A DNA stretch of 63,525 nucleotides, counting the filler, from Kipferlia bialata (taxonomy: Eukaryota): the NCBI GenBank assembly GCA_003568945.1. It is 6 parts of 6 records of this genome, joined end to end, with 100 filler letters (N's around TTAATTAATTAA, not from the genome) between each part and the next. Parts side by side here need not be neighbours in the genome. Positions count along the whole stretch, not along the records: positions 1 to 13,218 come from BDIP01000977.1; 5 more parts are not named here. One strand, 5' to 3'. Within the stretch, counting starts at the first letter, position 1. Each line of letters starts with the position of its first letter. This document shows, piece after piece, positions 61-53,064 of the stretch. A program made the position numbers and the translations under genes. The notes beneath the pieces were generated by a model, which had not been told where the DNA came from, did not search any database, and saw only the letters and a list, made by a program, of their open reading frames with translations.

Positions 61-367
61 TTGACGTCATCATGGCCAGGGCACAGGCAGCAGGTACAGA
101 GGATATGCATAGTATACATATGGTTCTTCACATACAAGTATTTAGTACTATTCATACATCTAACCATCCAGGTGTAGACAACATGATTGTCCAAGCAGGA
201 CATATACTAACGGGATCTACCTCTACACAGTACATTACCTATGTATATATATAGAAACTCTCTAACTCACTAGGCGTTGACAAGATGATTGTGACCGTTG
301 GGTCCAAGCAAGATATCGAGGGGGCACTGGCACTGTGCAGGCAGTACCCAGGTATATATGTGTATAT

Positions 368-408
<41 letters not shown>

Positions 409-3400
409 GGACATCGAGGGGGCACTGGCACTGTGCAGACAGTACCCAGGTGTAAACGTCTCTACAGTAGTCAAACACACATATATATATGAAGGGATAT
501 ATATGTATGTATTTATAGAGAGAGAGACAGTTATCTCCAAGAGAGTTAGGACACCGAGGGGACAAGCCGCACTTTCACTCACCCTCAGACAAGATATACT
601 TGCATCTCTCTCTCACTCACTCTCTCTCTCCCTGTCTTACCCTCAGGCAAGATGTACATGACCCTTGGCATCCACCCCACAAGGTATAGATATGTATACA
701 TGTCTTTCATAATTGTCTTACTTACAGGTATGTACTTCATACATATACTTATGACTATACATGTATATATATACTTATGGCATATGATGTACATGACCCT
801 TGGCATCCACCCCACAAGGTATACAGGAGATATCTTCCATACAGATACATACCTGTATTACACACGTATATATACATATGATTATATATATATGCAATAT
901 ATACATATGACACTCTTTGTACATGACCCTTGGGATCCACCCAACAAGGTATATGACATGTATTCAACTATATCACCCATAATTTGCACAATATCTGTAT
1001 TCTATCGGTGAATCTCTGTACTCACACCAGGTCCAAGCAGTGGAATGCCAAGATGCAGTCTCTCTCTCTCTCTCTCTCTACTCACACCAGGTCCAAGCAG
1101 TGGAATGCCAAGATGCGCTCCGAGCTGCACTCCCTGTTGACAGAGCATGCACGGACAGAGGCCAATCCAGAGGGTATATACAGTATACATATACATATAT
1201 GTATATAGTAGATATACATTGTAGATATATAGGAGTAGACACTGATTTGGAGTGTAAGTTTCTATTCAATATTCAACTTACCCCTGGGTGCGTTGTGGCC
1301 TATGGAGGGTACATGCTGGATATACACACTATAACTTTATATACTAATAGATACATGTTGTACTATATATAGTAATAGATACATATTATCCCTCACTTCA
1401 GGCTGCGTTGTAGCCTATGGTGAGTTTGGCCTGGACTACGACAGACTATATATATATATATATACAACACACTATATATGTTTTAGTATCCAAGTATATT
1501 CATCACAATTACCACTCCACTAACCTCTAGGTTGTGTCGTTGCCTATGGTGAGTTTGGCCTGGACTACGACAGACTATACAACATAGTATACACTATATG
1601 TGTATTATCCAATTGTGTGTTGTATAGCCTTTGCTACTGCTGTTGTACTTACTTACCTTAGGATGCGTTGTGGCCTATGGTGAGTTTGGCCTGGACTACG
1701 ACAGACTGCACTTTGCAGACATGGAGACACAGAAGAGGGCATTCAAGGTATGTGTACACTATACCTACAGTTATACATACCATATGTGTACTATAGGGAC
1801 TATATACTATATACTAAATACTATACTATGTGTATGATATATATAATACATACTGCACTTTGCAGACATGGAGACACAGAAGAGGGCATTCAAGGTGTGT
1901 GTACAATTGTATATACATATACGCTACCCCAGGCCCAGCCCCCCCCCCTCTCTCTCTACATATATCTTTATAAGGGTATATATATACTTACATATGTATC
2001 AGCTTAACCCTAGGCCCAGCTGGCCCTTGCCTCTTCTATATACTTACTCCCCTTTCTCTTCCTCTCTCTCTCTATATATATATATAAGGGCATGTATATA
2101 CCCTTTACCCCAGGCCCAGCTGGCCCTTGCCGCTGAGTTCAAGCTGCCCCTGTTTCTGCACGAGAGGTATATATTTTGTATATATAGATATATTAGGTTA
2201 TAAGAAGAATCTATATAATATATGTATTGAGTATCTATAATACATATGTATATGTGTATATATGTGTGTGTGCCACAGGTATATAGATGCCATATCTTAT
2301 ATTGTCATAGACCTGAATGAATAGAGAAGTAAGGGGATCCATGAATTCTTCAGTTCAGTTTGTCTAACCCCCAGGGCCGCAGCTGAGGACTTCCACTCCA
2401 TCATAGGCCCATACTCCGTGGCTACAAAGGGTATGTCTGCGGTAATATATACAAGCATGAATATACCCTCATCTTGCGGTATTGTTACTACCATTGAATC
2501 TTCTCTCTCTCTCATGGGAAGTAATTACTTTGAATTTCCCAGTGGGAAACACTGAAAATATAGGCTTATCATTGAGAATCACATGCAATCGAGACAGGCG
2601 ACCTATATGATTATGATGTAATGATATATTGTCTACATCTCTTACCCAACAGGCCAGGATGGTCTGGGTGGAGTGGTGCACTGCATATATAATGACACAT
2701 GTATACATTCATATATGAGTATATATATGTACATGTAGTCATATGCGCATCACATATATACTCACCCCAGGCCAGGAGGGTCTGGCTGGAGTGGTACACT
2801 CCTTCACAGGGGACGCAGAGGGTCTGAAGGTATCTACATACATGTGGGTATATGGCAGTATATCTATATATGTGTGTGTATCTAATGGTCATTCACAGGG
2901 ACGCAGAGTGTCTGAAGGTATAGTATGTGTATATGTACTTGTGTGTCTCGATATATGTATGTGTGTGCCAGTGAGGCATTTACAATACCGACATACCTTG
3001 GTTGTCTTACACTAGGGCCACAGCACAGGCTTTGACATCGGTATCAACGGGTGCTCTCTCTCTCTCTCTCTCTACATACTCTATATAGATATCTCTCATA
3101 CTAGGGCCACCTTGCCCTAGGCTTTGACATTGGCATCAACGTCTGATCTGTATGTCTCGCTCTCTCTCTCTCCATCCCTTCATATTCTATGAAAATGTAT
3201 ATAGTCTAACTGCTAGGGCCACCTTGCCCTAGGCTTTGTCATTGGTACCAATATTATCTCTCCNNNNNNNNNNNNNNNNNNNNNNNNNNNNNNNNNNNNN
3301 NNNNNNNNNNNNNNNNNNNNNNNNNNCTCTCTCTTTATATATATATATGAATATATCTTACTGCTAGGGCCACCTTGCCCTTGGGTTTGACATTGGCATC

Positions 3401-3488
3401 AACGGGTGCTCTCTCAAGAAGGAGGAGAACGTCACAGTGGCATCTATGGTGCCACTGGATAGGTGTGTATGCTCTCTTTTCTTTTTTT

Positions 3489-3531
<43 letters not shown>

Positions 3532-6500
3532 TAATATATATGTATATGTGTCAAGAAGGAGGAGAACGTGACGGTGGCATCAATGGTGCCCCTAGACAGG
3601 TACATATAATATAAGATACATCTATCTATATATATCAAGTGTACCACTGGATAGGTACATATGATATAATATACACCTATATGTATATATATATATATTT
3701 GTATCCAATATAGCGATGGTACTTAGAAGGAGGAGAACGTCACAGTGGCATCTAGCGTGCCTCTTGACAGGTGTGTATAATACATGTAACACACATTATT
3801 GTAACATATTTGTGTGTATACTATACTATGCATATGAGGCGGTGAACGTGACAGTGGCGGCACTGATACCCGTAGTTGGGTTATGGTATTAGATTGGGAT
3901 TGTATCGGCGCTGTTCCTCACATTTGTTCCTCTTGTACACAGACAATTACACATTGGCATGTGTATATATACATGTATACTTACCCTTAGGCTGCACCTT
4001 GAGACGGACTGCCCCTGGTGTGACATCAGGGCATCTCACCACGGGCACAAGGCAGTAAAGACACGGTATGTAGTAAGCCATATGTACATATATATATGTG
4101 TGTAGAGAGGTTTCATTATAGTATCATACACCACGGACACAAGGCAGTAAAGACACGGTGAGTGCTCCAAATGGATATGGAACCTGCAGTACTATTGATC
4201 ATCTCTGGATATATCTCTTCTCTATATATCCTTATCCTCAGCCCCTACAAGCCCATCAAGAAGGAGATTATATAGTATATTTGCGTAGAGTCTTTATTGG
4301 TATAAATCAAATAGCATGTATCTATATTGTTTAGAATCCCTATATTTACCCCAGCCCCTACAAGCCCATCAAGAAGGAGAAGTACGTGGTGGTGGACAGG
4401 CCGGAGGAGGTGGGCGTCTGTGTGTATGCAATGTAATTCATTCACAGACATATACATATATATATATATATTCATTGAAGTGGTGGACTCCATATATATG
4501 TGTGTATAATGTATATATACATTTGTATGTACTGTACCCCGGTGCCCGTGTTGTCAAGAGCAGTCTCTCTCTCTCTCTCTCTCTCTCTAAGTATACTGTG
4601 TACATGTATACTATCTATATACTTATCACTAGGGTTGTGCCCCCGGTGCCCGTGTTGTCAAGAGCAGGACAGAGCCATGCCACATCGTGGAGGTGGCAGA
4701 GGTGGGTAAAGAAAGAGAACAAAATTGCAGAGTTGACTATTCTGTCACTATAACCATGTACACTCTACTTGTTGTTTAAATAGACACTCTAACCCTCTAG
4801 GTCCTGAGCGTGTACCACTCCGATGAGACATGCAGAGACATGGAGGCACTCACAGAGAGGGTGTACAACAATACCATGAAGTGAGTATATATATGTATAT
4901 ATCTATATATACAGTCATTTTTTAGTGCTACACTAGAGTTTATAGTAGCATTAGACACGTATATATGCATTTTATGTTTAGGAATTGTTACATATTTCGT
5001 ACTATAGTATACTTCCAGTACCTCTCCCTCATCTACACACTTCTAAACATTTAGAGACGTCATTCTATTTGTGCGGTACGAAAGTGTCTAATAGTAGAGT
5101 AGATAAAGGCAGTGTTACATTAATTTGTATTGAATAGTACTTTACTAGTACCCCGCCCTCACCCTCAGGATGTACTTCCCCATTAGGGGAGTATATATAT
5201 ATGCATATATATATATATATATGAGTGTGTCGTATATACATACTACCTCTCCCTCACCCTCAGGATGTACTTCCCCCCTCTTACAGCCGAGGCCAAGGTA
5301 TGTGCCTCTATATGTACTTACCGTTAGTGGGTCCAATAGCAAAGGATGTCTACTCCCCTCCCCAGAGGGGAGATAGGGGTGTTAATTGTTAATGTATTTA
5401 ACCCCAGACCACTGTGAGAGGTGCCGGGGAGAGACAGAACGAGGTTGAGATATCAGCCAAGGATGTGCAGAAGGACTACCCCGATGTGCCACCCATGTAC
5501 AATGCAGAGGGTATGTATAATATACACATATCAGACAATTTGTATATATGTATGTGTGTATTGATATATATTGAGAGAGAGCTACAGAGTGGCTACCCCG
5601 ATGTGCCACCTGTGTCCCCAGCAGAGGAAAAGTATAGTATATGGAGAGAGAGAGAGGAAATGGTCGAGCGTTCTGGTGTGATCCCCATGTATACAGTATA
5701 GGGATGCGTATATACTGATTAATGACCCCATATCTGTATTACTATTACATGTATACTTACTAACCCCAGGCACCGAGCTCCCCTGCCATTCTGAAAAGTA
5801 TATAGTAGACGTACAACATGCAAGATATATATGTGTATATATACACTGTGATACACTGTTTTTACTTTGCTTACTGCTTACTATAGGCGCCGAACTACCC
5901 TGCACCCTCCCTGCCATTCTGAAGAAGACATCCCTCAACACATGCGTGGTCACGTGGCAGGTGTGGTGTATATGTGTATACCATATATAATGAATTATAT
6001 ATAGAATACATATACTATAAATGTGTTGTCTATGTGTATCCCTCAACACACGCGTGGTCACGTGGCAGGTATGGTATATATTAAAATGCAATATTTGATA
6101 TAATGTATAATATGTATAACATGTGTAATATATGCTATGATTACATTTAACTAATACCAGAGAGATGTGGGCACCTCCATGAGACTTATATATATATACT
6201 AATATCTATGATATTGTTATTATTACTATATGTTGTATATATATATATATATATACATGCTGATGCCAGAGAGACGTGGCCACCCCCCATGGTGACATAG
6301 TGGAGCCCAAGGGCACACAGAGAGGGGGCCTCACTGCCTCATGGTACGTAGATAGCTAACTGTATATGTATACATATGTATATATATTAATACCTGTGTA
6401 TATATATGTATGTATGAGTGCTGTCTATGGTACACAGAGAGGAATCCTCACTGCATCATGGTGAGTGGAGTATATATCAGATGTGTATATAGGTGTTTAG

Positions 6501-7057
6501 TAAGATCTTTATATACATACATTCTATGCACATTTCTGACTATGATTCCATACCTGGACCCAACCAATTGGTCTCCTCTAAACTCGCTCTCTCTCCATAT
6601 ATATGATTATATATATGATTATATAATTGCCCATCTGACTTTTAGGTGGGCCCCAGTGAATGGGTCCCCCCTCACCATTAGTATATCTCTCCCTATTAAC
6701 TTACCTATCTCTCAACGTTCCTATATAGAAATACACTCTTGTCTTATCCTAGGTGGACCCCTGTGAATGGGTCCCCTCTCACTCTGGCCGTGTCAGTAGG
6801 GCACAAGAGATACAGTCTGGCACCCATTAAGGAGGTGGGTGTATGTGTGTACGTATATGTATATATATATACATATGACTGTGTCAGTGGGGCACAAGAG
6901 AATCCTATTGGGTAGTAGTGTCATAGTTGATACGCTTCTGATATCTGGTTGTATTCTTTCTCTGCCCTCTTCTCTAAGTATGTCTCTCACCCCAGACTGG
7001 CTCCTTCTGTCTCAACGTGCTCCACCCCTGCCAGGTACCAGTCTGTTATGCTATCTC

Positions 7058-7095
<38 letters not shown>

Positions 7096-8171
7096 GTGGC
7101 AGATTTGTGGTATCCTTAGGTTGTTTTCTCTCACTTAGTGTGCTGTCTTAACCTCTATTTCCTTATTCCTCACCCCCAGGTCGATATCGCCAAGGGCTTT
7201 GGCTATGCCTCTCAGCACCTCCTGCAGGGTAAGTAGGAGACTATATGTATATATATATATATATATACATATGTATATAGACATTTGTGAGTATATATAT
7301 GCGTGGCCATGTATGGTTATGGCTATGCCTCCCAGCACGTCCTGCAGGGTATGGGTATTTATGGGTAATTTTATGTATAAATGTATGTCTAGATATTTAT
7401 ATATGTATATACCTGTATACATCAAAGTGCATATAGTATATACTATATATTTATGTATACATGAATGAGAATTTTTCTTTCAGTTCTCCCGCTTCTCTCT
7501 CATCATCTGTCGATGATATTCTTTGCATTTCTCTCTCCTAATCTCTCTCTATCTCTCTCTCATCGTAGACAAGGACAAGTTTGACCTGTGTGGTGTCACC
7601 CCCTCTACCGGCCCTGTCCTTGGTATGCCTGTTCTGCCCGGGCCTATCAGCTTTGAGTGCAAGGTAACTCTCTCTCTCTCTCCCCATATATGTGTACATC
7701 CCTTACCCCAGGTCACCTCTGTCATGTCCATGTCTGACCATGACCTGATTGTGGGACAGGTATAGATATACTACTACACATTACAAATACATAGTTTCAA
7801 TACATATGGGAGTATGTGTGTAGTTTCAGTATATTCATGCATAAGTGTGTGTGTGAGTGTGTATCATCTATATAGTACTATCCAACCATATTACAACATT
7901 GTGAGTCTTTATCAACCTCCAAGTCGTGTGACGACACTGTGTGCTCTCACTCAATAGACAAATATAGTTGGTGATGAGACTCTTCTCTCAGGTCGTTGCC
8001 TGTGTCTCTGGTGATGACACTGAGGATGTATCCAAAGATATATATACATATCTATATATACGTATATACATTATACTTGTCTTACGCTAGGTCGTAGCCT
8101 GTGTCTCTGGTGATGACACTGAGGACGGTGACAGCAGGAACCTTCTGGCGTCATTCGTCAAGATGTTCTAA
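55..8171 (+). CDS. tatD: TatD-family DNase (TATDN1-like), 5' partial, apparently fused to a C-terminal flavin-reductase-like domain; about 23 exons
   Basis: Phase-compatible GT-AG exons 55-93, 274-351, 647-683, 1091-1173, 1662-1747, 2114-2166, 2375-2430, 2771-2829, 3368-3462, 3991-4065, 4355-4409, 4633-4701, 4801-4880, 5264-5297 give the TatD motifs GIHP, GEFGLDY, LPLFLHER, GVVHSFTG, GINGCSLK, LETDCPW and EP. There is no stop after 'NNTMKMYFP'; the frame continues to TAA at 8169-8171. Confidence 0.9.
1286..1896 (+). repeat. Exon-echo array around TatD exon 1662-1747
   Basis: Partial copies of the exon 5' end at about 1286, 1402-1447 and 1531-1577 (the latter two with their own AG). A copy of the exon 3' half plus GT lies at 1852-1896. 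Confidence 0.9.
3015..3880 (+). repeat. Exon-echo array around TatD exon 3368-3462
   Basis: 5' echoes at about 3015, 3104 and 3216 (GGCCAC...GGCTTTG). 3' echoes at 3551-3601, about 3644, 3725-3773 and a degenerate one at about 3836-3880. Confidence 0.9.
3264..3326. other. Scaffold gap inside a TatD intron
   Basis: 63 N with no linker motif, flanked by CT-rich sequence. Confidence 0.95.
5887..8171 (+). other. Flavin reductase-like (split-barrel, flavoredoxin/DIM6-NTAB type) domain exons
   Basis: Exons 5887-5960, 6270-6343, 6753-6834, 6996-7035, 7180-7228, 7569-7663, 7712-7759, 8091-8171 translate to ...GGLTASWWTPVNGSPLTLAVSVGHKRYSLAPIKETGSFCLNVL...AKGFG...DKDKF...PVL...FECKV...SDHDLIVGQVV, the family pattern. 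The 7035/7180 junction is not phase-resolved, so a micro-exon is probably missed. Confidence 0.8.
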
Positions 8172-8749
8172 AGGTGATAAGAGCATTCAGATAGTACAGA
8201 AGGTGTTCAGAGCGTCATTCAGATGGTATGTGAGGGAGAGTAGCAGATGTTCGGGAACCTTCTGGCCTCATTCGTCAAGATGTTCTAAGGAGGTTCTAAA
8301 TATGTTCTAAACCAATGAATTTCATTAGCCAATAGACAATGGAACCAGGGGTATATATGACTTGGGAGCGAGATGTTGATACTCAAGAGAAAGTGCGATA
8401 TGGCCATATGTCTAGCCGTACTGACTCAGTGCTACTGCTTCAGTACTACTGCCATAGAGGGCTCATTTGGTTGAAAGGGATACACTGTCATTCCAATGCC
8501 GGATACATTGCAGGCCTCCCAATGGGAGGCTCCCATCCACTTATAGTGCCACGAAACCGTGTCAGTCGCAATTTCAATACATGCTGTATGATAGAAGAGT
8601 AGTCACAGTGTGGACACTCATTCATCCTCTCTCTCCAGCATACATGTCTACTTAGTCTTTCTATGGGCTATACGCTCTCTGCTATCCTCGTTGTACCCCA
8701 CTCTCACCTTCTTTCTCCAGGCATCTAAGTGTACTTACAGAGAGCATCA

Positions 8750-11700
8750 CTAAAATGTATTACTCTCCCTCTTATCCACGTTGTAACCCCACTCCAGGTC
8801 AGGGTGAGGATACATCACCTGCGGGAGGTACTGCACAAGCCTAAGTGTAAGTGTACACACTATAGGGATACATCTCTTCTGTTACATATGTACATATGCA
8901 TAATATATATGCAATGCATAGTATGCATCCATACCTCGCTGTCCTCATGTCATCCATGACCAGGGCAGTACATACCAATGACACATATATAGTATAGATA
9001 TATATATACTACACACGTATATGTATATAACCATGTATGTATACCTCGCTGTCCTCATGTCATCCATGACCAGGGCAGGTACATCTCAAATTGTGTGCAA
9101 TAGTCAAAAGTACCAACATATACACTATAACTGTAGTATTAGTACCTAGCTGTCCTCATGTCATCCATGACCAGGGCAGTGTCTGGTGACATATATATAT
9201 GTACTGAATACCTATCTATCTATCTATCTATCTGTCTATCTATCTATCTATCTATCTATATCTATATATATAAATATATATACATATGTATACCTCGCTG
9301 TCCTCATGTCATCCATGACCAGGGCAGTGTCGGGTGAGACCAATACACCACCAGTGGGTCGAGTGCTGAACTGCATATGAGTACTGATGGTGTATGAATA
9401 TATATATATACGTACATATATATATATATAGAGTTATGGGTACATATATATGTATATAGATACCAGTACACATCTAGTGGGTCTAGTACTGAACTGTGAT
9501 GAGTTGCCTACATGTGTACATACATATACACACAACATACTTTGCACTTATACATCAATTAGCACCAATCACATTTCTTGTGTACCTTAGATATATCCAT
9601 ATATATTAGTATGTATAGTATATACCTGGATTAGTTCCTTCTCCCCCCATATCTCCATGTCCCCTGATATGGTGTCATACACTATGCACTNCCTTCTCCC
9701 CCCATATCTCCATGTCCCCTGATATGGTGTCATACACTATGCACTCTGACACAGTCACCAGGCCATTGGGACTGTACACGACAGAGGGTATCACGAGGAA
9801 ATGGCCGATGGTAATAGCCTATCAGTAAGAGAGAGAGAGAGAGACTAGCCCATTGGGACTGTACACGACAGAAGGGACAACAAGGAAATGGCCAATGGTA
9901 ATAGCCTAAGTGTTAGAGAGAAGAGAGACATAGAGAGAGACTACACCAGTGATACTGACAGTGGCTAATTGTAATTGCATGTTAAAGTAAGCCTACCCTT
10001 GTATATTGAGAGAGAGAGAGACACATGCACGCACAAGGCCGTTTGGAGTGCAGAAGACAGTAGAGAATACATCTATACTCTTGCTGCCCCCCATTCCCAT
10101 CTGCCACACACTCTCTCTCTATATCCCTCTTTCCATCTATCTGTATAGATATGGATATGTACATATCTATATATATACCTTGGCTGCCCCCCCATTGCCA
10201 TGGGTCAGACTCATGTAGGGCAGGGTGTCCTCTTTGTGCCACCCAGTGGCATGGTTATAGGTCACATGGGTACGGCCCCTATAGATGAGAAATAGATGAG
10301 GATATATGTGTAGCATACTATCTCTTGTGACAGCTCACAGAGAGTATATATCAATACACCTTAGAAAGTGTTCCGTGTCCCCCACTGTGCCATGATAATA
10401 CACATACTATATACACTTCATATAAATGTATATTAATATGTATACACACATATATGCATACATACCTTAGGAAGTGTGCCGTGTCCCCCACTGCACCATG
10501 GTAATACCCAGTCAGAGGCATAGTACATAGAATACATTTATATCTATATCTATATGTGTGTGTGCGTATGTATATACTATAGAACCTCAGAAAGTGTGCC
10601 GTTTCCCCCACTGCCCCATGGTAGTACCCAGTCAGAGCCTTAGGGCAATCAGGTAGACAGGTCCACTCTCCTGGGGTTAAATACTATATATCTATATAGT
10701 ATTTAGGTGTATGTATATATACTGTCAGAGACACAGTTGGGAAGACAAGTCCAATCTCTATTTGTAAATATGTAAAATATATGTAGATACATGCGAGTTG
10801 TGTATGTGAATATATGATATACTACATCCCTCTATATATACAGATAGATATATCTATATATACTATATGTCCCTCACCACTCAAAGGGTCTAACATCCAG
10901 GCCTGAAGAGAGTGATGTCCTCGATTCTGCCTGAGGGTTAGAGTAGTAGTATATACATTGAATAGAACTACACAAATACAGTAATGACATATATGCATAG
11001 CCATAATTGACCAGATGAGAGTGATGTCTAAGGGTTAGAAGGCAACAGAACTCCCTATACACACACACATATATGTGAATATTCCATAAATACAGATACC
11101 TTGAGTACAGACACATATGCATTCCTATATAATGTATATTCACCTCTGATCCCAGAACTCGCCCCCTGTCACGAGTAGATGTTCATCCAGTGCTAGCATG
11201 GGACCAGGGATGTGGTCATTGCCCCTCCTGGAGTTATGATATTGTCTAAATGTTAGTACTTCGCATATGTTTATACATATATGTTCTCTATATGTGAGAC
11301 CATCCAAGGCTAGCATGGGAAATGGAATGTGGTCATTGCCTCTCCTAACGTTAGATTAGTATTATAGCTATGTAATTTATACACACATTGTATGACACAT
11401 ATACTATAGGACACAGAATGTGGTCGTTGCCTCTCCTAGAGGTGTTAGTGTATGTACATATAGTATTACATATAGTATTACAATAGTACATACATAATAC
11501 TATGAATATCAATACCTCTTCCTAGTCTTGAGCCCAGGTGGATTGCATGATACAATTAGAAAATACAGTACATATGTACAATGTACACACATCATATACA
11601 CACACATATATATATGTTATTCCCAGTACCTCTTCCTAGTCTTGAGCCCAGGTGGATTCCCGTAGTTCCTATCCCACTGCAGGACTGGCTCTCCCTCTCC

Positions 11701-12987
11701 CTCACCCTCTGTATAGAGTGCATCACTATCAATCTCCACCCCTCTGAATGTATCTCTCTCTCCCTCTCTCATAGCATACACTGCCCCACTATCAATCTCT
11801 ACCCCTCTGAATGTGTGCCCATCATAGCACACTAACATACCCTGCACAACACAGAGAGACACATTCCTCTGCTTGATACAGACAGTGTCAGTGGAGTGTA
11901 TGGCTATACTAGAGAGACTTGAGGGGCTAGGATTGTCGGCTGCCTCGGTCTCTGTCTCTTTGCTCTGAGGGAGTGTGCTCTGTGAACCAATGTGCATTAT
12001 GCGGCGCATGTACCCTACTACCCCACCTGACATCCTACCAGTGGGGTGTGCAGGGGTATCAGTCGCTTGATCTCCCCCTAGAGAAGAATCAGTCTCACAG
12101 GCATTTGTTGTGTCAATGCGTATGATACGGCACTGATAGGTTGGGTTTCGGCCTCCACCCATCGGGGAGTCACACACACATAGCAGAGTGTGGTGGTCAA
12201 GTCTCACCGCACAGTATACACCTGACTGTGAGTATATCCATAGGATATACATATAGCATATAGGTATGGTGTCACACCCACAGAGGAGAGTGTGGTGGTC
12301 TAGCTTGACAGCACAGTACACACCTGAGTGTGAGTATATACACATATAGTATACATAGAGTGTAGGAACAAAGTGACAAACACAGAGGAGGGTTTGGTGG
12401 TCCAGCTTGACACAGCAGTAGACACCTAGGGGATCAGAATATATGATATACTGTGACATAGCATATATATATGCTATATATATATATATAGCTGTATAGA
12501 GCTCTAAATATAGAATAACAGAGTGTGGTGGTCCATTATGACAACGCAGTATACACTTAGAGCGTATTAGAATAGAATGTATCTGTAAGTACCTCGTGCC
12601 CATAGCACCTCCTTCAACTGTCTGCGAAAGGTCAAGATACTGTGCGTGTATATCTTTCATCTCTATATATACACTCACCTCGTGCCCATAGCACACCCTT
12701 CATCTTTCTGGACACTAGGGCATGCTCACATGGCATGGAGGCTGGGGATAAGAGAGACAGAGAGAAACAGAGGGGGGACAGAGAGAGAGAGAGAGAGAGA
12801 GAGAAGGAGGCTGTTAGACAAGTGGCATATACGTTGAGGAAAAGCGAGAGGGAGTACGAGAGTGGAGAGAGAAAGAGAGAGAGAGAGAAAGGTTGAGAGA
12901 GACATAGAGACAACCTGTGGGCCTCCGGTGTCTTCTTGAGGGATATGGTGCTTGTGGATGCCAACACTGATGTGGAGGGTCATATTG
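8750..12987 (-). CDS. Hypothetical Kelch-like/beta-propeller protein, multi-exon
   Basis: Minus-strand exons give GVYCAVRLDHHTLLCVCD, LTGYYHGAVGETAHFLR, VTYNHATGW, AITIGHFLVIP...CIVYDTISGDMEIW, GGVLVSPDTALVM and a last exon LVQYLPQVMYPHPDLEWGY ending in TAG at about 8750. Start not resolved. Confidence 0.6.
8932..9329 (-). repeat. Four near-identical copies of a ~37-nt exon 3' end plus donor
   Basis: GCTGTCCTCATGTCATCCATGACCAGGGCAG at about 8938, 9048, 9149 and 9297, each adjacent to TACCT (a minus-strand GT donor); spacing about 100-150 nt. Confidence 0.92.
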
Positions 12988-13189
12988 CTGAGGTCAGAGC
13001 AGGGTTCAGTATTTCAGTACTTTTGGTTTTTTAAGTCTGTGAGTATAGGTAATCAATCCACATCATCCTTGCAGTCCTCGATTTCTCACGACAGGATGGC
13101 CGAGGCACAGTGTCACTGACGCGTGTTACTTTAGTCAGAGAGTATAGGTATATCAATCCACAATATCCTTGTAGTCCTCGATTTCACAC

Positions 13190-13218
13190 GACAGGATGGC
13201 CGAGTGGTTAAGGCGATA
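13190..13218 (+). tRNA. tRNA 5' fragment, probably tRNA-Ser, truncated by the contig end
   Basis: GACAGGATGGCCGAGTGGTTAAGGCGATA matches the acceptor-stem/D-arm (A-box TGGCCGAGTGG) pattern of eukaryotic Ser/Leu tRNAs. The anticodon is not visible. Confidence 0.7.
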
Positions 13219-18720: not shown

Positions 18721-21700
18721 ATGGAGGCTCCCACGAAACCTGTTCACAAGCCGCTGAAACTAGCCCTCCTTGTAGGTATGTGGAGAAGGTGGTGATAGTG
18801 TATATATGCGTCAGAGTGGCCCTCTGGATATATGCCTAAAGATAATGAAGGACTAATCTATACACCCGCATCACATCCTGATTGCCTATGCTGTGTGGAC
18901 CTCATCACTGATCCCATACACTGTGCTTCTCTCACCAATAGGCAGCTCCTGGGCTGTGAGCCAGCTGGACTACAACAGCACACAGGTACAGGGCATGTAT
19001 ATGTATGACATCCATTCAGTACACCTTGTGTATGGGTATGCGTATGTATGTGATGCTTACTGCCCAGGTGTGTGTCCCCCTGATCCAGCAGTACTATGGC
19101 CTCCCCGAGTCCAGTGTGCAGGTGAGACCCATACACTGTGACTTATGTCACAATGTCCATACACTGTCAGGGTCGGATATGGGTTGTGCTCTAAAGCCTT
19201 GTCAGCCATTCATGTATGTAGTGTAGAGGAATAGGATGCAATAGCTCACCTTCAGATGTGTCTCCTCATTCCACGTCTCTCTCTCTCCCTCTCTAGTCAA
19301 TGCATCTCTTCCTGATCTCGAATCACTCTAGTATATGAATTAGCTGTTCCTCTCCCTCTCCACTCTGTGTCCTCAGGATATGTACATTCTGCGTGTATCC
19401 TACTGTGTGTATAGTACTCTCTCCCACATAATACATCCCTTTGGGGGTACTCCTCTAGAAGGTTCTTCTTATCCCCAGTGGAATCTGGATATTGCCTCTA
19501 TTTCCATGATCTTTGTCTTCTATTCTTATCGTGTGTCTCTCCCTCACCCCCAGTGGATCCAGATTCTGTTTCCCATCTCATTTGACTGCTGCTAGATATT
19601 CACTAGTATATATATCTGAATAATACGCCAATATATTCTCTATTTGATGAATATGCTCATATGCAACCTCACCCAGTGGATCCAGATTCTGTTCTCCATC
19701 TCCATCGCATCTGTGTCTGTGGTGGCAGGCAAGCTGGGGGATAGGCTGGGGGGAGACAGGTATACATATATATATGGATATGTATAATACTGTGAATAAG
19801 AGTATATGTACATTGTGACAGGCAAGCTGGAGAGAGACGGGGGGGACAGGTGCGGTAAACCATATGGAATCACGTTCATGTATACTGAAGTTTCCTCACC
19901 TCAGAGTGCTAAAGTGGTCTCTCTTCCTGTCCTTACATACATCCATATATACCGTATCGATTACGATTATATATATAGGTATATACCCATATGTATACCA
20001 ATACACATGCCAATCCTCACCTCAGGGTCCTCAAGTGGTCTCTCTTCCTGTCCTTCCTGCTCAACCTAGTGCAGTACTGGGCACCCACATTCAACGTCAG
20101 GCTGGGGGCCAGGTATGTTTATATACTTATGTATATATACATTTACCATATAATGTGTACCTGATATAGTACTGGGCACCCACATTCTATGTGAGACTGG
20201 GGGCTAGGTGGGTATATATGAGGATATATCCTCATGATCCTAGTGTCGTGTGTATGGCATGGGTATTGTATAGATATGTGCATATATAACAACGAATTTG
20301 ACCTGCCTTACTCTACATATCTCACCCCAGGATCCTTGTCTCGACGGTGTATGGCATGAGTACTATTATGATTCTTATACACTGTATATATATATATGCT
20401 AGTATATCTATACCCACCCCAGGATCCTTGTCTCCATGGTGTATGGCATGGGGTCAGCCAACTCAGGGCCAAACTACCTGCGGTGGGTGTGAATATATAT
20501 ATATATATATCTTCTAGCCTATACATCTTGTAATGTTGGTCATTCCTTTGGTATGTTGATATGTCTGTTATCGCAGCCTTCCCCCTCACTCACTCACCCA
20601 GCATCGCAGGCCCCAAGATGCTCCCCATGTGCCTTGCCCTCCATACACTAGTGGGTACGGGGCAGTGAGGATGTATGCATACCCACGTACATCTATAACA
20701 TACATACACATACACATATATATGTATGTGCCTCACTCCAGGCACCGTTGTCATGATCCTGTCCCCCATCATGGCATGGATACATTGTATATATAGCATA
20801 TATATATAGTATATACTCTATCAATGTATGATTATATATGAATACTGACCCCAGGCACTGTTGTCATGATCCTGTCCCCCATCATGGCTGGGTATGTCGC
20901 TGGTCTGTCCGATGACCCAGCCAACCCAACATGGCCTTACATATACCTAGGTGCATGGGTTGTATGTATGTAAATACAACTATTTATGGGCAGTGTGCTC
21001 AATGATCAAGTAGATGTCACAGTATGCGTGTACATGTATATGAATCATTGTATGCGCTACACTCGTTTCTTACCCTCATTAGTTTCCCCTACTTGTGCTG
21101 CTGCATTTTCTGGTAGACAGCCAGCGTGAATCTATAGTATTATATTTGCTATTATATATGTATGTACTCTTCTGATACCAGTTATGTCTGCCCTTGCCTT
21201 TGTGTGGTGGGTGGCCAATGCATATATATATTGTTATAGTAGCGTATGACTATATGTGTATATATATATGTGTGTGTCTAATACCAGTCGTGTCTGCCCT
21301 TGCCTTTGTGTGGTGGGTGGCCAATGTGCTCTACCTACCCAAGACAGACAGAATCAGTGAGGGGGCATTCGATGGGGTGAGTGACTCTGTATATATATAT
21401 ATGTGTGCATGTATGTATTTATATATATTAGTTGTATGTGGGTAGTGTAGATAGGATCAGCGAAGGGGGCTTTCGATGGGGTGAGTGACTCTGTGTATAT
21501 ACACACCATTTGCTGTCCCCTCACCCCCTAGCTAGGCGGACTCCTCTTCACCCTTGTGACCCTGTCCCTGGTGTTTGGACTGGCTGCCATACCCATGGAC
21601 ACAGTGAAGGTATGGAATATACAACTGATATGTATATAGATATGGTACTAATACCAATACTAATACATATGTGTGAACATACACACTGGCTGCACCCCCC

Positions 21701-24700
21701 ACCCTTCAGATGCTGTACAGCCTCCCTTGTATCTATTTATCTGTATAGTATGCAGACACTGTATGTGTTTTACATTGTGTTCGTGTATACATTCACCATA
21801 TCCCTCTCCCTCCAGATGCTGTACAGCCTCCTAGTATTGTATATGTGTTGTATATAGACACTATATATGCATGTACATACATTCACCATATCCCTCACCC
21901 CATAGATGCTATACAGCCTGCTGTCCCTGACCCTCTGTGCGTGTCTGCTGCCTGTCCTGTTCTGGCATGAGTCGAGGTACCTTGTGTATACATGTGTGTA
22001 TTTGTTAGGATATTCATGTATACATGTGTATGTATCATGTATATATCCACTGATACTGATACTGTCCTATTCTGGCACGAGTCGAGGCACGGTACACTCA
22101 TCACACTATTGGACTCTCTCTCTGTGTGTGTATGTATCCATGTACTTTCTTCCCCCAGGCACCCCACCCCCATCATCCCCACCAAGCTCCTGTCCCACAA
22201 GAAGGCCAAGAACGCCCTCATGGCTGGCATATTCTTCATGGTGAGGTATTTATGTATATATATATATACACACACCTTGAGTGTTCATCTACTGTTGATG
22301 CCACGAACCCTCCTGATACCCTTGACCCTATGCTCTACATACATTTGTTATATCACACTAACCCCTTAGATCTGCATCCAGTCCCTGATGTACTTCTTCT
22401 CCTATGTATACTTGTACCATATATACAAACTATATACACTCTACTTCACTATATATATACATGTACACATACATGTCTCTCCTATCCTAATCCTAGATCT
22501 GCATCCAGTCCCTGATGTACTTCTTCACCTATGTGTTTGAGTGGGTGTTCCACCTGGACGTGGGCACAGCAGGACTGTGCATGGCAATCACCCCTGTGGG
22601 TACGTGGTACATGTCTATACTAGTGTATGTGAGTGGCTAGTATCAATACCATCCCTCACCCCCAGGCATCGCTGTGTCCTCTGTCCTGGTGGGTAGGGCG
22701 ATGCAGGTGGGTGCATGTTCATCATTCTACACTCATAATACATTTAGTATTTATAAATATGATATTATATTGCCCTGTTACTTAACCCCCCAGCGCATAG
22801 CCTCCCTATCCTTCTGCAATATGCGCATATATATGTGTCCTGTTTGGCATGACCTGCTGATATATGTATGCATATACAAGTATAGATATACAAATACATA
22901 TATACTACCAGTGCTACACGAGCATCTAACCGCAGCGCATAGCAGCCCGCCCCATCCTGATGTTTGGCATGACATGCACCACCCTGGTGTGCATACCCAT
23001 AGCACTGGCAGTCATACCCTGTGACTCACTAGCCATGTACGGGACGATATATACTTATACTGTACAGATATGTAATCCAATTCTACTATATGAGTATGTA
23101 CCTCGGCCGTGATACCCTGTGACTCACTCACCATGTACGGGGGTTTATATGTATAGACATACAGACTCACGTATTCACTTGTATTCCATATTGTCACCTC
23201 CAGGTACGTGACCTCCCTGTCCATCTTCTCTGCCTATATAACGATATACCTGTATTGCTAATATGTATATATATACCATATAGTATGTGTATGTGTATAA
23301 CCTCAGGTACGTGACCTCCCTGTCCATCTTCTCTGCCTTTGCAGGCACCTTTGGGGTGACCAACCAGTCCAACCTGATAGCATCCATGCCTAGGTACATT
23401 CTATACTCTATGTATACTTACATATTCCAAGTCCATCAATGCCTGGGTCGGGAGAGTGACATGTGTACTGCAGTATGTGGATACCTATACCCTTACCCCT
23501 AGGATGTATGCAGGGGTGGGTGCACCATAGTTACTAAACTGCAGCATCTATATGATGCAGCAGTCTATATAAAGCATCTATATAAAGCATCTATAATATA
23601 TGTATACATATATTACAACTACTCATATCTCATATATCACTACCCTATACCTGTTATACTAGACACTGACCCCAGGATGTATGCCGGTGTGGTGGGTGCC
23701 CTGCTGGTGGCTGTCAACCAGGTAATGGGGGGTATCAATATATATATGCATATGCCACCGGCTGTAAAGTGTTAACAGGCATAGTATGTACTAGTCTCTA
23801 TTCTACACATACTCACCCCCCCAGGCCGGCAAGTCCACAAGCACTGCATGTATATATTTCTAATCTCTATCCCCCATGTACATTCTATACTTGCTGTACA
23901 ATGTCTCACCCCTTCAGGCCGGCAAGTCCACCGGCATAGCATATATGCAAATATGTATATATATTGTATGAGCTATATCTACATACATACTCTATACATA
24001 CTCATCCTCCGGCCGGCAAGTCCACCGGCATAGCAGCTGCTGTCCTCCTACAGAAGATGTATGCAACAAGGCTCAGTGGGTGGGAGGGGCCCATTCCGGC
24101 AGGTGCATTCTCTAAGCTGTACTGGTATATACTTGTGTATATTTACGCACCAACACTATATGTGTGGGTAGTGAGAGCGCAGGTTGAGTGGGTGGGAGGG
24201 GCTTATTCCGGCAGGTATGTCATGGGAAGACATACAGTGTGACAGATGTATCAACTACTATCCGTACACGAGTACCTACCCTACACTGTCATTATACCAT
24301 ATTTGTATATTATAGACCAATGTAGATACATTACATGTACCCATCATTGAATTACCATACTGACCCCCCAGGCGTCCCCACCCCTGAGTACCTCCCCTAC
24401 TACACCCGGTCCATAGTGTTTGTGACCCTGGCTGCCATGGTGTTTGGGGTGGTATCACTCACATGCATACCGGGGATCGGGTACTCAGAGAACGATAGGT
24501 ATAATGTATACATGTACTCTATACAGTATATGATATATGTACATACACCCTTACCCCCAGGGGCAACAGAACATGTATATATGAATGTATAGTGTGTATA
24601 TGTGATACTTAGACTAACCCCCAGGGGCAAGAGGTTCACCAAGGAGTCCCAGATATACATATGTATATATGTATATATGTATATGTGTATATGTACTCTA

Positions 24701-24947
24701 TACAATATGTATTATACATACATATACCCTCACCCCCAGGGGCAAGAGGTTCACCAAGGAGTCTCGCGTAGAGACTGTGACCCTAGACTCCGATGTAGTG
24801 AGAGAAGGGTCCAGTCTGCTAGACAAGGCCACACCCTTGGTGCACAGCAGAGACAGGAGGGAGGGGGAGGACACTGTATACACCATACCCTCCCAGGCAC
24901 ATGGGGTGGGGGAGGTGGAGGAGACAGAGTCAGATGACATTAGTTGA
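18721..24947 (+). CDS. MFS transporter, DHA2 (EmrB/QacA-like) type, many exons
   Basis: MEAPTKPVHKPLKLALLVGSSWAVSQLD..., VQWIQILFSISIASVSVVAGKLGDRLGG (motif A), FWHESRHPTPIIPTKLL, further hydrophobic exons, and a stop at TGA 24945-24947. Confidence 0.85.
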
Positions 24948-36100: not shown

Positions 36101-37588
36101 GCCACGCTGGAGGGGTGAGAATAACATAGAGTATGTAGAGTAAAGTCACTGTGCTCCCACTATACTAGACACCGATAAGATATATATGAATCAACTTGAT
36201 ATGTATGGATTGTTAAGCCACCCCATACCTGTCTCCCCAGCTGCAGCCTGGGCAGGTTGTGCTCCATCCTGGGGGGTGAGAAGGGTATGGCATACGTAAA
36301 ACAATTACTGCCTCCACTAATTCTCAATTCTGAGTATCTATGGAAATGTATCCTGGAAGTCATGCATGTGTACTATATTGAGAGAGTGTATGTATGCATG
36401 TATACCTGTATCTGGCCAGCAGTCCCTGCAGGTCCTGTAGAGCCTCGCCCTCAGTGGCCCTGAAGGGTGAGGGGGTATGGGTGCATTGGATGGACATGGA
36501 AATACTATGTTTATACATATCATCTATATACCTAGCCACGTCCAGCAGTCCACTGACACCCCTCTTGACAGCACTCCCAATGTACTCGGCCTGAGGGTGA
36601 GATAGACTATCAACAAGAAAGAGAACACAAGTATAAATATACATATAACTATATATATATATATACTACATACCTTAGCTGTAGGATTGGGTCCACTTGG
36701 CTCTGGGTCATAGTCAGAGACCTCGGGGGTGGGGGCTACCTCAAGGACCTGATGTCAGTTACACTATGCCCAATGTACATATTGTATATTATGTACATTG
36801 TATGATATATGTTACCACTGGGGGCAACCTCCAGGACCTGTGATAGTGAGGGATCATAGACGCTATACGTGATACTATTCACAAACGATATATAGGAACA
36901 CTGCATTCACAGTACCTCGTCGAGTGCCTCAAGGGCGGCATGGCATGGCTCACTCAACAGCTCACCCATGGTTCTGAGGAGTCTGCTGCGACAGCCACCA
37001 GTCTAAAGTGAGCAGATACATAATGGGAGATTGACAGTGGCCGACTAAGGAAGATGAATACAGAGCTGGCCTTTCACTAGATAGCCATAAGAAACTGATA
37101 TATATAGTATCTACCTATATGTGTCTATATATACTATACCTGCGCTCCCACTGTCTCCTCTGGAGGCACTGTGCCCCCAGGTGATAGGGTGCCACCCACT
37201 GTGTCCCTGTCCATACCATCATCAAGGACAGAGGGACCTGGGCCTAGCAGGATCTGGGGGTGAGGGAATGCATAGATTCAATAGGTGTACTATCATGGGT
37301 CTGTAGAGAGAGTGACAAGGAACATAGTATACCTTAGACAGAGTGACATATCGCCTGTCCCACACACACACTCTCTACATGTGCTATATATATGTATATG
37401 TATGTATGTAGGTGTAAAAATTCATATCCCATACCGTCGACAGAGTGACACAGCCTCTGAGGGCGTGATGGAGTGAGATCAGTGCCCTGAGGGCCTGGCC
37501 TGCTGCAGCTGGGGTACCCCTGGGGGGTGAGGGTGAATATCTAAGAAGATGAATGTAAGTCATAATTTGTATCTATGAATATAAACAT

Positions 37589-37629
<41 letters not shown>

Positions 37630-51450: not shown

Positions 51451-51497
<47 letters not shown>

Positions 51498-51560
51498 CAA
51501 TTGAGCAGTGCTGTTATAAATCGATTCACTACTGTCTAGAGAATGGCCGATGCATCTCAC

Positions 51561-52150
51561 CTGACAATGTGCTGGATAGACAATAGAGATATGGACATGC
51601 ACAAACCAGGACCCCACACGATAATAGTAGGCAGCAATAATAGCCTATGGGGCATTGCATAGCATCAGAAAACCTTGAGGGGCGGAATTCTTAGTATGTT
51701 GCAGAGAAATGGATGAATACTGATGAATATGCATCGTCTCACCTTGAGCGGGTCTAGCGTGTATCTGACCCCTGCCCCCCCTGCCCGTATCAGCACAGCG
51801 GAGAGGTGTATACCGTCAGTGACAATGTGCAGGGACCCCTTGGGGCCTGCACTGGGGTTAAGGGGGGAGGGGGGAGTGGGGGTAGGTTTCTGACAAGTCA
51901 ATTGCGAGATATGCTTCCACCATCCAATACCCACCTAGCCCATGCCACCGCCCCCTCTCCTAGCACACTCACACCCACATGCTCACAGGACACCAGTATG
52001 GACACTATCCTCCTGTCTACGGCCTGCACTTGCTGCAGGAGACTGCCCTGGGGGTAAGAGAGAGAGAGAGGTGCTATTGGCCCCTCTTCTCCTGCATATG
52101 GGATGTTATACCTCCTGGGGATCTCCGTTGCTATGCGCTCTGGCCTTCAT
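51561..52150 (-). CDS. Exons of a hypothetical protein, possibly the 5' part of the LRR gene
   Basis: GT-AG-bounded blocks MKARAHSNGDPQE, GSLLQQVQAVDRRIVSIL... and SAGPKGSLHIVTD, separated from the LRR exons by a low-quality poly-G tract. Confidence 0.35.
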
Positions 52151-52648: not shown

Positions 52649-52976
52649 CTAGCTGTAGAGGTCTGGGATGTCCTCTGCCTTCTTGTACAGTACCTTCTCA
52701 CGGGCCTAGGGGTTAGACATAGACTGAACACTATCGACACAGATATTTACTTCCAGAGAGGGAGGGGCGAGAAGAGAGAGATCGAGATTACCTTGGTGAA
52801 GTCTGCCTGGCTGACTCTCATCCTATACATACACACCTTGAAGTATACACATACTTAGATACTATTACATATAACACACTATATCTATATATGAAGTGTA
52901 CCTTTGTGAAGTCTGCCTGGCTGACCCTCATCCTCCTCTCCCTGAGGGCCATGAGACCGGCCTCGGTGCAGATGGC
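52649..52976 (-). CDS. RPT2: 26S proteasome AAA-ATPase subunit RPT2 (PSMC1), last two exons
   Basis: [43 protein letters not shown], matching the Rpt2 C-terminus with an HbYX tail (LYS). Confidence 0.92.
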
Positions 52977-53064
52977 CTTGGGTAAGGGTATATATATAGA
53001 GAGAGAGAGAAAAAAAAAGACAGCAGGGGGGGGGGGGGGGAGGAGAGAAAAACCCCCCTTTTGC

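Follow-up and report, generated by a model that had tools for sequence, protein, structure and literature searches.

Why should the introns of Kipferlia bialata hold copies of the adjoining exon ends whose differences from the real exons lie mainly at silent sites? The question arises from a 63,525-nt window of assembly GCA_003568945.1, meaning the whole stretch of DNA analysed, which consists of six joined parts and supplies all of the echo statistics given below. Here, an echo is a copy of an adjoining exon end, 15-60 bases long, inside an intron. These copies are genuine features of the genome, each bearing a single splice site with about one intron length of spacer before or after it, and they are absent from the assembled transcripts.

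Echoes in the window

An unbiased search of 173 exons against their flanking introns retained 92 echoes. Matches were discarded if they scored below 30, covered fewer than 14 identical bases of the exon, or were of low complexity, and a 55-bp repeat surrounding the N at 9691 was removed ahead of the count. Just 4 of 2430 control searches of exons against foreign introns passed this filter, corresponding to about 0.6 expected false echoes. Echo cores measure 14-62 nt, and 85 of the 92 extend to one splice site only. Spacing is mostly 85-135 bp, and intron length is quantised, with medians of 85 bp in introns lacking an echo and of 222, 307, 402, and 528 bp in those with one to four. Echoes also mislead gene finders; a Viterbi gene model called many of them as micro-exons. 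The window additionally contains a MutS-family gene at 33.9-39.6 kb, and ARAGORN and Rfam returned no match at a tRNA-like repeat.

The protein of the focal gene, in which intron 9 is the site first described, has a 100% match to a Kipferlia bialata entry and carries the Pfam domains TatD_DNase (2-281) and Flavin_Reduct (368-491); both halves of the fusion are covered by one spliced contig. Exon 9 of this gene has echoes on either side:

72..8171, plus strand: TatD DNase / flavin-reductase-like fusion gene with 23 exons and, within or next to its introns, 32 echoes; exact spliced match to P0001
3016..3060, plus strand: 5' echo of exon 9, AG acceptor; net 3 nt shorter, in frame
3105..3141, plus strand: 5' echo of exon 9, AG acceptor; 2 synonymous differences
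3217..3251, plus strand: 5' echo of exon 9, AG acceptor; 3 synonymous and 2 non-synonymous (D>V, I>T) differences
3264..3326, no strand: assembly gap of 63 N in intron 8, across which the number and order of 5' echoes are not contiguous
3368..3462, plus strand: real exon 9, GHLALGFDIGINGCSLKKEENVTVASMVPLD-R; spliced contig (run X2) on 3366-3459 with 0 other letters
3551..3599, plus strand: 3' echo of exon 9, GT donor; 6/6 differences synonymous; offset 137
3641..3654, plus strand: short 3' echo of exon 9, GT donor; flank in common with echo 3551 (score 24 of 34), codons as in the current exon
3725..3770, plus strand: 3' echo of exon 9, GT donor; 3 synonymous differences and ATG>AGC (M>S)
3837..3879, plus strand: degenerate 3' echo of exon 9, EAVNVTVAALIPVV; 6 synonymous and 8 non-synonymous differences
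3991..4065, plus strand: real exon 10; one DNA contig (3554-4437) joins it to echoes 3551-3879 at depth 415 with 0 differences

Echoes 3551 and 3641 have a common flank, yet differ at four third positions within 14 nt, indicating that exon ends and flanks have been reassorted. Further echo loci include the following:

8759..12741, minus strand: echo-rich gene, model g2a/g2b (predicted, no RNA check); 17 echoes and the highest silent divergence (pS 0.41 in g2a)
18721..24946, plus strand: membrane-transporter-like gene (labelled 'MFS' in the initial annotation); 20 exons, 20 echoes
52789..52824, minus strand: 3' echo of an AAA-ATPase lid exon (52902-52976); 2/2 differences synonymous

Divergence between echoes and exons

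It had been claimed that echoes differ from their exons almost only at synonymous sites, with a third-position bias beyond neutral expectation. Checked window-wide on the 92 echoes, differences at codon positions 1, 2, and 3 number 48, 44, and 180, giving a third-position share of 180/272 in trimmed cores and 205/324 in full alignments. The bias is real and not the product of cherry-picking, but its wording was too strong, as 62% of differences are synonymous and 49 echoes carry at least one amino-acid change, with 27 differing only silently and 16 being identical to the exon. The synonymous share of 0.62 in trimmed cores, or 0.59 in full alignments (dN/dS 0.16 or 0.19), lies well over both nulls, namely 0.26 if mutation affects only the echo and 0.41 if the exon also accumulates silent changes at an equal rate (binomial P 3e-12, with sites not independent).

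Most of the examples first cited were recovered. Echo 3553-3599 differs from exon 3416-3462 at exactly six positions, all synonymous; echo 3727-3770 again shows three synonymous changes plus M>S; the differences at echoes 1531 (4/4), 1402 (2/2), and 410 (2/2) and at the AAA-ATPase echo, there called RPT2 (2/2), are all synonymous; and the MFS echo at 21449 has four synonymous changes and a 1-nt insertion. The esterase echo has one synonymous change, but at 15 nt and a score of 28 it falls below the cut-off of 30. Two descriptions did not hold: the degenerate echo near 3836, said to read conservatively, has its eight non-synonymous changes (against six synonymous) include E>V, D>V, and R>G at residues where 64-80% of homologues share the exon residue, and the 'WASH' echo near 62380 carries two synonymous and four non-synonymous changes.

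If echoes were plain self-duplications in neutral decay, with the bias arising from silent exon drift and mutation context, divergence at four-fold sites should be about twice that at zero-fold sites. Several features do speak of neutral decay: a net frameshift in 10 of the 92 echoes, a mean BLOSUM62 of -0.59 over all amino-acid changes (near the neutral -0.74), and change of the GT/AG dinucleotide in 8/83 echoes, which at about 5% per base resembles zero-fold decay (4.7%). However, divergence is 0.30 at four-fold sites against 0.049 at zero-fold sites, a ratio of 6.1 (95% CI 4.2-8.3) that fell to 2 or below in 0 of 5000 bootstraps over 53 exons and is still 5.4 with only the nearest echoes. 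CpG or base-specific mutation was rejected as the cause, since the bias is the same for all four bases and persists without CpG (0.234 vs 0.044). Together with a fit worse by about 73 AIC units, these values make plain self-duplication highly improbable. For the same ratio, and because intron flanks are at control level in 52/53 cases, simple intra-allelic tandem duplication was rejected.

In 13 multi-echo sets, variants common to several echoes comprise 29 synonymous and 1 non-synonymous, whereas private variants divide 31:31, which points to inheritance of functional variants followed by later decay; the suggestion that these sequences had passed through protein-level selection is borne out by that 29/30. 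Changes private to the most similar echo divide five to five, numbers too small to be decisive. The 45 echoes without zero-fold change still diverge at 21% of four-fold sites, and the synonymous share drops as divergence rises (27/39, 57/80, 64/111, 22/42). In the TatD domain, 7 of 16 amino-acid changes give residues found in at least 5% of homologues, compared with 19.5% for all single-step changes (P 0.02), although four of the seven lie in one echo; one TatD-domain change, A144G, yields the residue of 52% of homologues.

Transcripts and splice-site choice

Spliced contigs came from run X2, taken as RNA by guess; such contigs skip GT-AG introns and drop rare forms. The listed spliced pieces correspond to the real exons with 0 other letters, even where echoes differ (1661-1745, 3366-3459, 22932-23036), and used joints coincide with pre-existing exon ends. 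Judging from their frameshifts and the amino-acid changes in 49, echoes look untranslated at present.

Translation of echoes in some transcripts, through alternative splicing or a repeat-guided join of echo to exon, would place them under direct protein selection, and echo splice sites are indeed often as strong as used ones (18/41 acceptors, 19/41 donors score as high). The MFS gene offers a second point in favour, in that exon 18 follows a CG acceptor while its echo has AG:

23722..24011, plus strand: intron spliced as GT..CG, containing two AG echo acceptors (23825, 23918)

The last seven exons and six joints of this gene are present in a spliced contig; joint 23720-24011 (2 shiftable letters) has depth 74, and a DNA contig (23309-24646) shows 0 differences. 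The contiguous copy of exon 18 has the CG acceptor and the echo with AG is identical at 24/24 positions, so a GT-CG intron is indistinguishable from a route through the echo. Against translation stand the spliced pieces, which match real exons only, the common frameshifts and amino-acid changes, the scarcity of second splice sites at echo junctions (a GT near 18/47, an AG near 13/45), and would-be inclusion lengths that are flat modulo 3 (26/22/24). We therefore regard translated echoes as very improbable; selection on the frame of leaky inclusions was rejected on the flat lengths. The proposal that echoes serve today as alternative or mutually exclusive exons runs against the same data, since they are half-exons with one splice site and their zero-fold and GT/AG decay is neutral-like. 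Recursive splicing at AG/GT ratchet points was likewise rejected, as exons with 3' echoes end in AG in 27/34 cases versus 85/121 (P 0.39).

Whatever the origin of echoes, the spliceosome of K. bialata, reported to be reduced with 87/174 proteins found (PMC6679479), passes over decoys that equal real sites in strength, so that the choice of splice site lends itself to direct testing.

Assembly integrity

A further explanation is an assembly or library artefact, in which diverged haplotypes or strains were stitched in tandem. The assembly is a short-read draft with gaps; the 55-bp duplication around a single N (9636-9746) resembles assembler overlap; run X1 is possibly the window's own source and thus not an independent sample; and the link from exon 9 to echo 3551 passes a microsatellite (3489-3547) bridged by none of the contigs listed. 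Nevertheless, separately assembled contigs of 0.6-1.3 kb, at depth 397-485, run through several echoes without a single difference, and no haplotype at half that depth is seen. One identical 35-nt echo is collapsed, its depth of 1080 being about double that of the flanks, and inverted self-matches in the window amount to only 3/79. Echoes, unlike live alleles, also have their own frameshifts. An artefact is highly improbable, and the arrays, as far as contigs can show, are not mis-assembled.

Alternative letters in the DNA contigs amount to one over 8.3 kb and to none over 2.3 kb, hence no second haplotype is visible in the sample. Searches for a second Kipferlia-like strain found none in the protein collection (1420 hits, best other 48% identity) or in metagenome contigs (45 loci, 30-52% identity).

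Origin of the echoes

Similarity of intron flanks exceeds the control 99th percentile in only 1 of 53 cases, and the flanks of nine identical echoes likewise resemble one another no more than chance (scores between -8 and 6.5, out of 45); relatedness stops 10-14 nt into the intron. Spacers have a median of 74 bp, against 82 bp in echo-free introns, and 2/71 are shorter than 45 bp, where a random junction would give half. Dinucleotide runs in the exon show no excess at junctions (0.40 vs 0.37) and so give no evidence of microhomology, and slippage at exon-internal runs was rejected for lack of enrichment. An origin of 5' and 3' echoes as tiles of an exon around a lost intron position was rejected as a general account, holding within 1 nt in 3/20 exons.

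Of the options raised by the initial annotation, snapshots of divergent alleles taken by inter-homologue template switching fit best. We consider the chances slightly better than even that echoes were captured from divergent working alleles as homologous repair ended off-homology, which implies silent diversity near 0.2. In this scheme, about 20% of silent sites would differ between alleles and the TA-rich introns would have become unalignable, leaving short exons as the only islands of homology. After a break just inside an intron, the nearer exon would invade the other allele, and synthesis would run through the whole of that allele's intron and about 30 nt into the following exon. The usual outcome would be annealing of the new strand within that exon, with a clean swap of the intron; in the faulty outcome, the strand would instead be joined to the extremity of the other side of the break, where nearly all of the original intron is still attached, to give exon, intron, half-exon, and second intron. 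Whole-exon copies or half-exon fusions would be lethal, so half-exon echoes would survive. Each echo would be born with silent differences, then decay neutrally (about 3-5% so far) and be lost through deletion between repeats, and repeated events would build arrays of ~105-bp units.

Metamonads are described as lacking NHEJ and fornicates as having lost Rad51A while retaining two Dmc1 paralogues (PMC8516963); DMC1 reportedly tolerates mismatches (PMC7809202), and termination of homologous recombination by microhomology joining is described as possible without XRCC4 (PMC5104497). The same account of metamonads describes sex as not observed in Metamonada (PMC8516963). A capture-plus-decay fit gives silent diversity of 0.21-0.30 and is about 73 AIC units better than the self-copy null. 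Against capture, the diversity needed is near the highest reported, and no donor allele turned up among the 1420 protein hits, the 45 metagenome loci or the DNA contigs.

Unrelated flanks could alternatively reflect fast slippage in TA-rich introns. Identical self-copies may have arisen by ~105-bp tandem duplication, after which gene conversion from divergent alleles, limited to exons, replaced the exon sequence while slippage scrambled the flanks, a history that also requires a hyperdiverse recombining population. This sequence of events predicts the same silent excess, agrees with the 16/92 identical echoes and with units that keep alignable flanks (e.g., 21702-21832 vs 21808-21922, 74%), and suits an age-scaled model (silent divergence x6.4) that fits as well as capture (AIC 499.7 vs 500.8). 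However, for flanks beside identical echoes to be random, introns would have to turn over tens of times faster than point changes accumulate; only 8 variable sites of the multi-echo sets are unique to the exon, against 84 changes that are echo-private or echo-common; and whole-intron-length spacers go unexplained. We hold this history to be unlikely.

Less likely still, second-order selection may preserve the reading frame of self-copies, since an echo would occasionally become the coding copy through deletion or conversion between the repeats. This idea agrees with the presence of direct repeats at 100-bp distance in a lineage dependent on homologous recombination, with the reassortment of flank and codons at 3551/3641 (showing exchange among copies), and with the age-scaled fit. 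Zero-fold divergence, though, has no gradient outward from the splice site (0.042, 0.056, 0.045; P 0.88), ten echoes are frameshifted, and by a rough estimate exchange so slow that silent divergence of 0.3 persists could remove amino-acid changes only at a population diversity of ~0.5 or more, which is implausibly high.

Capture from divergent alleles, taken together with the splicing data, leads to a broader picture that we offer tentatively, with the odds somewhat against it. Introns may be a running archive of other alleles, in which Dmc1-only, NHEJ-free repair leaves divergent half-exons in ~105-bp units; an apparently haploid genome would record outcrossing and silent diversity near 0.2; variants would sometimes be converted back into exons; and the spliceosome would ignore dozens of equal decoys per gene, following a rule under which even a CG acceptor is chosen ahead of two AGs upstream of it. 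If true, one genome is enough to reveal population diversity and outcrossing in Metamonada, illustrates how recombination manages with homology confined to 40-100-nt exons, and supplies a concrete mechanism of quantised intron growth.

Comparison with known systems

No account of half-exon echoes was found in the openly accessible literature searched. Trypanosome VSG and Borrelia vls silent cassettes and ciliate paralogous MDS copies are non-expressed fragments that store coding variants, and they serve dedicated loci or programmed rearrangement; echoes, in contrast, sit in ordinary housekeeping genes. The reassorted echoes 3551 and 3641, a single pair, give a hint only of stored-variant transfer. 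Tandem-duplicated mutually exclusive exons, such as SCN-alpha exon 5, resemble echoes as exon copies in adjoining introns with mostly silent differences; Dscam is a further example. These exons are whole, have both splice sites, and are expressed, whereas echoes are half-exons with one site, are often frameshifted, and are absent from spliced contigs.

Internal gene duplication, or tandem genomic duplication, was reportedly treated by Gao and Lynch in 2009, and likewise involves short tandem exon repeats within a gene that are removed with an intron. As reviewed, an AGGT-containing exon segment is duplicated and a new intron created (PMC3443670). Echoes instead duplicate an existing splice site, leave intron number unchanged, have unrelated flanks and mainly silent differences, and reach up to 1.5 per exon. 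Intron gain via duplicated AG/GT was rejected, as used joints are old exon ends and the focal exon 9 repeat has no AGGT ahead of its donor.

In hypervariable Schizophyllum commune, with genotypes 14% apart, crossovers are reported to concentrate in exons (PMC4209137), which likewise act as islands where divergent genotypes recombine; its abstract gives crossover positions and does not mention intronic relics of exon ends. Non-canonical termination products of homologous recombination have in common with the proposed origin of echoes the copying from a homologous template, end-joining outside homology, partial duplication, and independence from classical NHEJ. Those products are rare accidents in reporter cells, copied from the sister chromatid, whereas echoes are proposed to be recurrent, heritable, and inter-allelic.

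Gene models

The window was built from six records with N-TTAATTAATTAA-N linkers between them, and all counts refer to this window only. The finding under study, short intronic copies of neighbouring exon ends (echoes), lies in record 1. A focal-exon query returned a single protein match, P0001 (100% identity), which its source records name a Kipferlia bialata TatD family protein and which contains TatD and flavin-reductase domains; exact spliced alignment placed its 508 residues on 23 exons separated by GT-AG introns. The following features were distinguished:

72-8171 (+): gene for a TatD DNase fused with a flavin-reductase-like domain, both halves in one spliced contig
3368-3462 (+): exon 9, the focal exon, from exact spliced alignment of P0001; downstream intron of 528 bp
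11683-11814 (-): 63-bp tandem repeat, in frame, 78% identity, within a long predicted exon
13034-13218, end of record 1: repeat at 99-bp offset, 90% identity
18721-24946 (+): transporter gene
33916-39616 (-): MutS-domain gene, approximately 28 exons, Pfam MutS_V
47667-50425 (-): aromatic amino-acid lyase gene, at least 18 exons, zero echoes; a useful internal control
61411 region (-): GC donor in a proline-rich gene, predicted by the exon model only

The flavin-reductase-like second domain was seen in none of the other 119 listed homologues. A 621-nt contig (record 11 of X2, the run giving spliced contigs; depth 1986) aligns with portions of the flavin-reductase half (5508-8290, +), showing 9 differences in 94 nt, and is probably a separate paralogue. 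Exon models (n = 173) came from P0001 for the TatD gene and otherwise from a small gene finder with curation; outside the TatD gene and the transporter gene's final 7 exons they are predictions. Pfam support is limited to AAA lid, MutS V, aromatic lyase, TatD and flavin reductase, and the labels MFS, RPT2, WASH and esterase are presumed, some being taken from the initial annotation. The MutS-domain gene presumably resembles meiotic MSH4/MSH5. We take the end of the 13034-13218 repeat to resemble a tRNA-Ser/Leu 5' arm; ARAGORN and Rfam gave no match there.

Echo census and assembly

Comparing the window with itself gave 76 matches in direct and 3 in inverted orientation; almost every direct pair lies at most a few hundred bases apart. 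When every exon end was aligned against its flanking introns, leaving out one assembler-type repeat and matches scoring below 30, 92 echoes were kept; exon ends aligned against foreign introns passed the same filter in 4 of 2430 cases. Exon 9 has three 5' and four 3' echoes. Echoes are real and widespread in the AT-rich records. Echoes per exons amounted to 49/32 in record 1, 33/40 in record 2 and 2/47 in record 4, and density tracked intron TA content (rho 0.92, 11 genes): echo-rich genes (records 1-2) have TA-rich introns, echo-poor genes (39888-53064) short, GC-richer ones. The main cases named in the initial annotation proved exact on realignment; two others cited there in support do not serve as such, with 6 synonymous versus 8 non-synonymous differences (3837) and 2 versus 4 (62395).

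Two sequencing runs, X1 (DNA contigs) and X2, contain the stretch; X1 is a possible source of the window and tests the assembly, not the sample. One X1 contig, of depth 415, matches 3554-4437 without a difference, a stretch holding four exon 9 echoes, exon 10 and further sequence, its neighbours lying at 397-454; another covers 23309-24646 at depth 470, and an identical 35-nt echo collapses into depth 1080. A single alternative letter, sited at an echo/exon boundary, was listed over 8.3 kb, and none over 2.3 kb; no second haplotype is visible in these X1 contigs (8.3 kb and 2.3 kb), a kind of contig that drops variants. Two stretches lack a bridging listed contig: the 3264-3326 gap and the microsatellite separating exon 9 from its first 3' echo. 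It is extremely improbable that the echoes are an artefact. Separately, an exact 55-bp duplication flanking a single N at 9691 (9636-9746, inside an exon) is likely an assembler overlap artefact.

Silent bias and origin of the templates

Trimmed echo cores differ from their exons at 48, 44 and 180 sites in codon positions 1, 2 and 3; of the changes, 166 are synonymous and 100 are not (dN/dS 0.16). Full alignments differ at 63, 56 and 205 (dN/dS 0.19). The observed synonymous share of 0.62 compares with 0.26 in a neutral-decay simulation, or 0.41 with equal-rate silent exon drift added; plain neutral decay of the copies is hardly credible. Four-fold sites differ in 125 of 511 cases and zero-fold sites in 88 of 1873, a corrected ratio of 6.1 (self-copies beside a silently drifting exon would give about 2); a bootstrap over 53 exons gave 4.2-8.3, with values of 2 or less in 0 of 5000 replicates. 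The silent excess is also present for every base and outside CpG. Together, these results show the bias to be strong and general in the window, whereas the original wording, that echoes differ almost only at synonymous sites, fits the best examples only.

Across 13 multi-echo sets, shared variants were 29 synonymous to 1 non-synonymous and private ones 31 to 31; at 6 sites (4 synonymous) every echo departs from the exon and no two echoes agree. In echoes that lack zero-fold changes altogether, divergence at four-fold sites is still 21%, and in TatD-domain echoes, homologue-used residues account for 7 of 16 amino-acid changes against 19.5% expected, a single echo contributing four of these seven. 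Thus, sequence comparison points to templates that were once working exons, distinct from one another and from today's exon.

Present use and splice-site choice

The echoes look neutral today because they carry 16 indels in 2905 nt and net frameshifts in 10 of 92, have GT or AG altered in 8 of 83 site-reaching cases (approximately the zero-fold rate), show amino-acid changes of mean BLOSUM62 -0.59 (neutral, -0.74), and would give inclusions of lengths flat modulo 3. Moreover, X2 spliced contigs (presumed RNA; for TatD, part of the pieces) coincide with real exons, showing no other letter even where the echoes of an exon differ from it. Direct translation of the echoes is very unlikely on these features. 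Echo splice sites score as high as used ones for 18 of 41 acceptors and 19 of 41 donors; real acceptors are weak in echo-rich genes (median 4.8 bits, against a self-fitted 15.9 bits for the training genes). Readings of echoes as mutually exclusive exons or as recursive splicing failed on tested features.

A transporter-gene spliced contig joins 23721 to 24012, defining a GT..CG intron (23722-24011, +) with depth like that of other joints and its CG end confirmed in a DNA contig. Two strong AG acceptors within it, at 23825 and 23918, are skipped, scoring 12.4 and 7.5 versus -2.9 for the CG. Echo 23918 matches the first 24 nt of the exon exactly, so a two-step splicing route through it may be an alternative to this intron.

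Geometry and proposed mechanism

Median echo offsets are 107 bp for the nearest, then 210 and 352 bp, and median intron length rises with echo number from 85 bp (none) through 222, 307 and 402 to 528 bp. The echo-exon spacer has a median of 74 bp (short echo-free introns, 82 bp), and only 2 of 71 spacers are shorter than 45 bp, whereas random junctions should leave half of them below that length. Similarity of spacers to the exon's own flank exceeded the control 99th percentile in 1 of 53 cases and was at random level even beside 9 identical echoes; intronic relatedness extends 10-14 nt past the splice site. Exon 9 echoes 3551 and 3641 have a flank in common but show four third-position differences, 3641 being the one that agrees with the current exon.

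We infer repair by allele capture. A break just within the intron would let the nearer exon invade a divergent allele; the foreign intron and approximately 30 nt of the next exon would be copied, and the copied strand joined to the tip of the other broken end. The gain per event would be a single foreign half-exon plus one additional, nearly complete intron, products with a whole exon or fused exons being purged. A capture-plus-decay fit gave a silent diversity of 0.21-0.30, ahead of the self-copy null by approximately 73 AIC units; a model merely scaling silent divergence 6.4-fold fitted equally well, so statistics alone do not choose the mechanism, and the choice rests on geometry and flanks. 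The silent diversity demanded by capture is very high. Self-copies whose exon was later replaced by another allele, a possible but distinctly less probable origin, would need the same diversity and, in addition, very rapid scrambling of introns. Second-order selection on echoes by way of recycling is quite unlikely: it predicts a gradient outward from the splice site, where none was found, and needs a diversity of at least 0.5 by rough estimate. Donor alleles were not found among protein-collection and metagenome matches, and dinucleotide runs in the exon, as microhomology, were not in excess at echo junctions.

Published background fits the capture mechanism: metamonads lack NHEJ, fornicates have lost Rad51A and have two Dmc1 paralogues, and meiotic genes are retained though sex is unobserved (PMC8516963); DMC1 tolerates mismatches (PMC7809202); crossovers are confined to exons in a hypervariable fungus (PMC4209137); and HR can end by microhomology (PMC5104497).

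Comparison with known systems

As explanations of the echoes, AGGT intron gain and simple tandem duplication failed on tested features. Internal gene duplication has reportedly been treated by Gao and Lynch. A literature search returned no description of such exon-end copies, and parts of the main text of the K. bialata genome paper, which gives 124,912 GU-AG introns, are without mention of them (PMC5874029); exon-end echoes are apparently undescribed so far. They are a variant of known processes, the closest systems being internal gene duplication, as reviewed in PMC3443670, and non-canonical HR termination.
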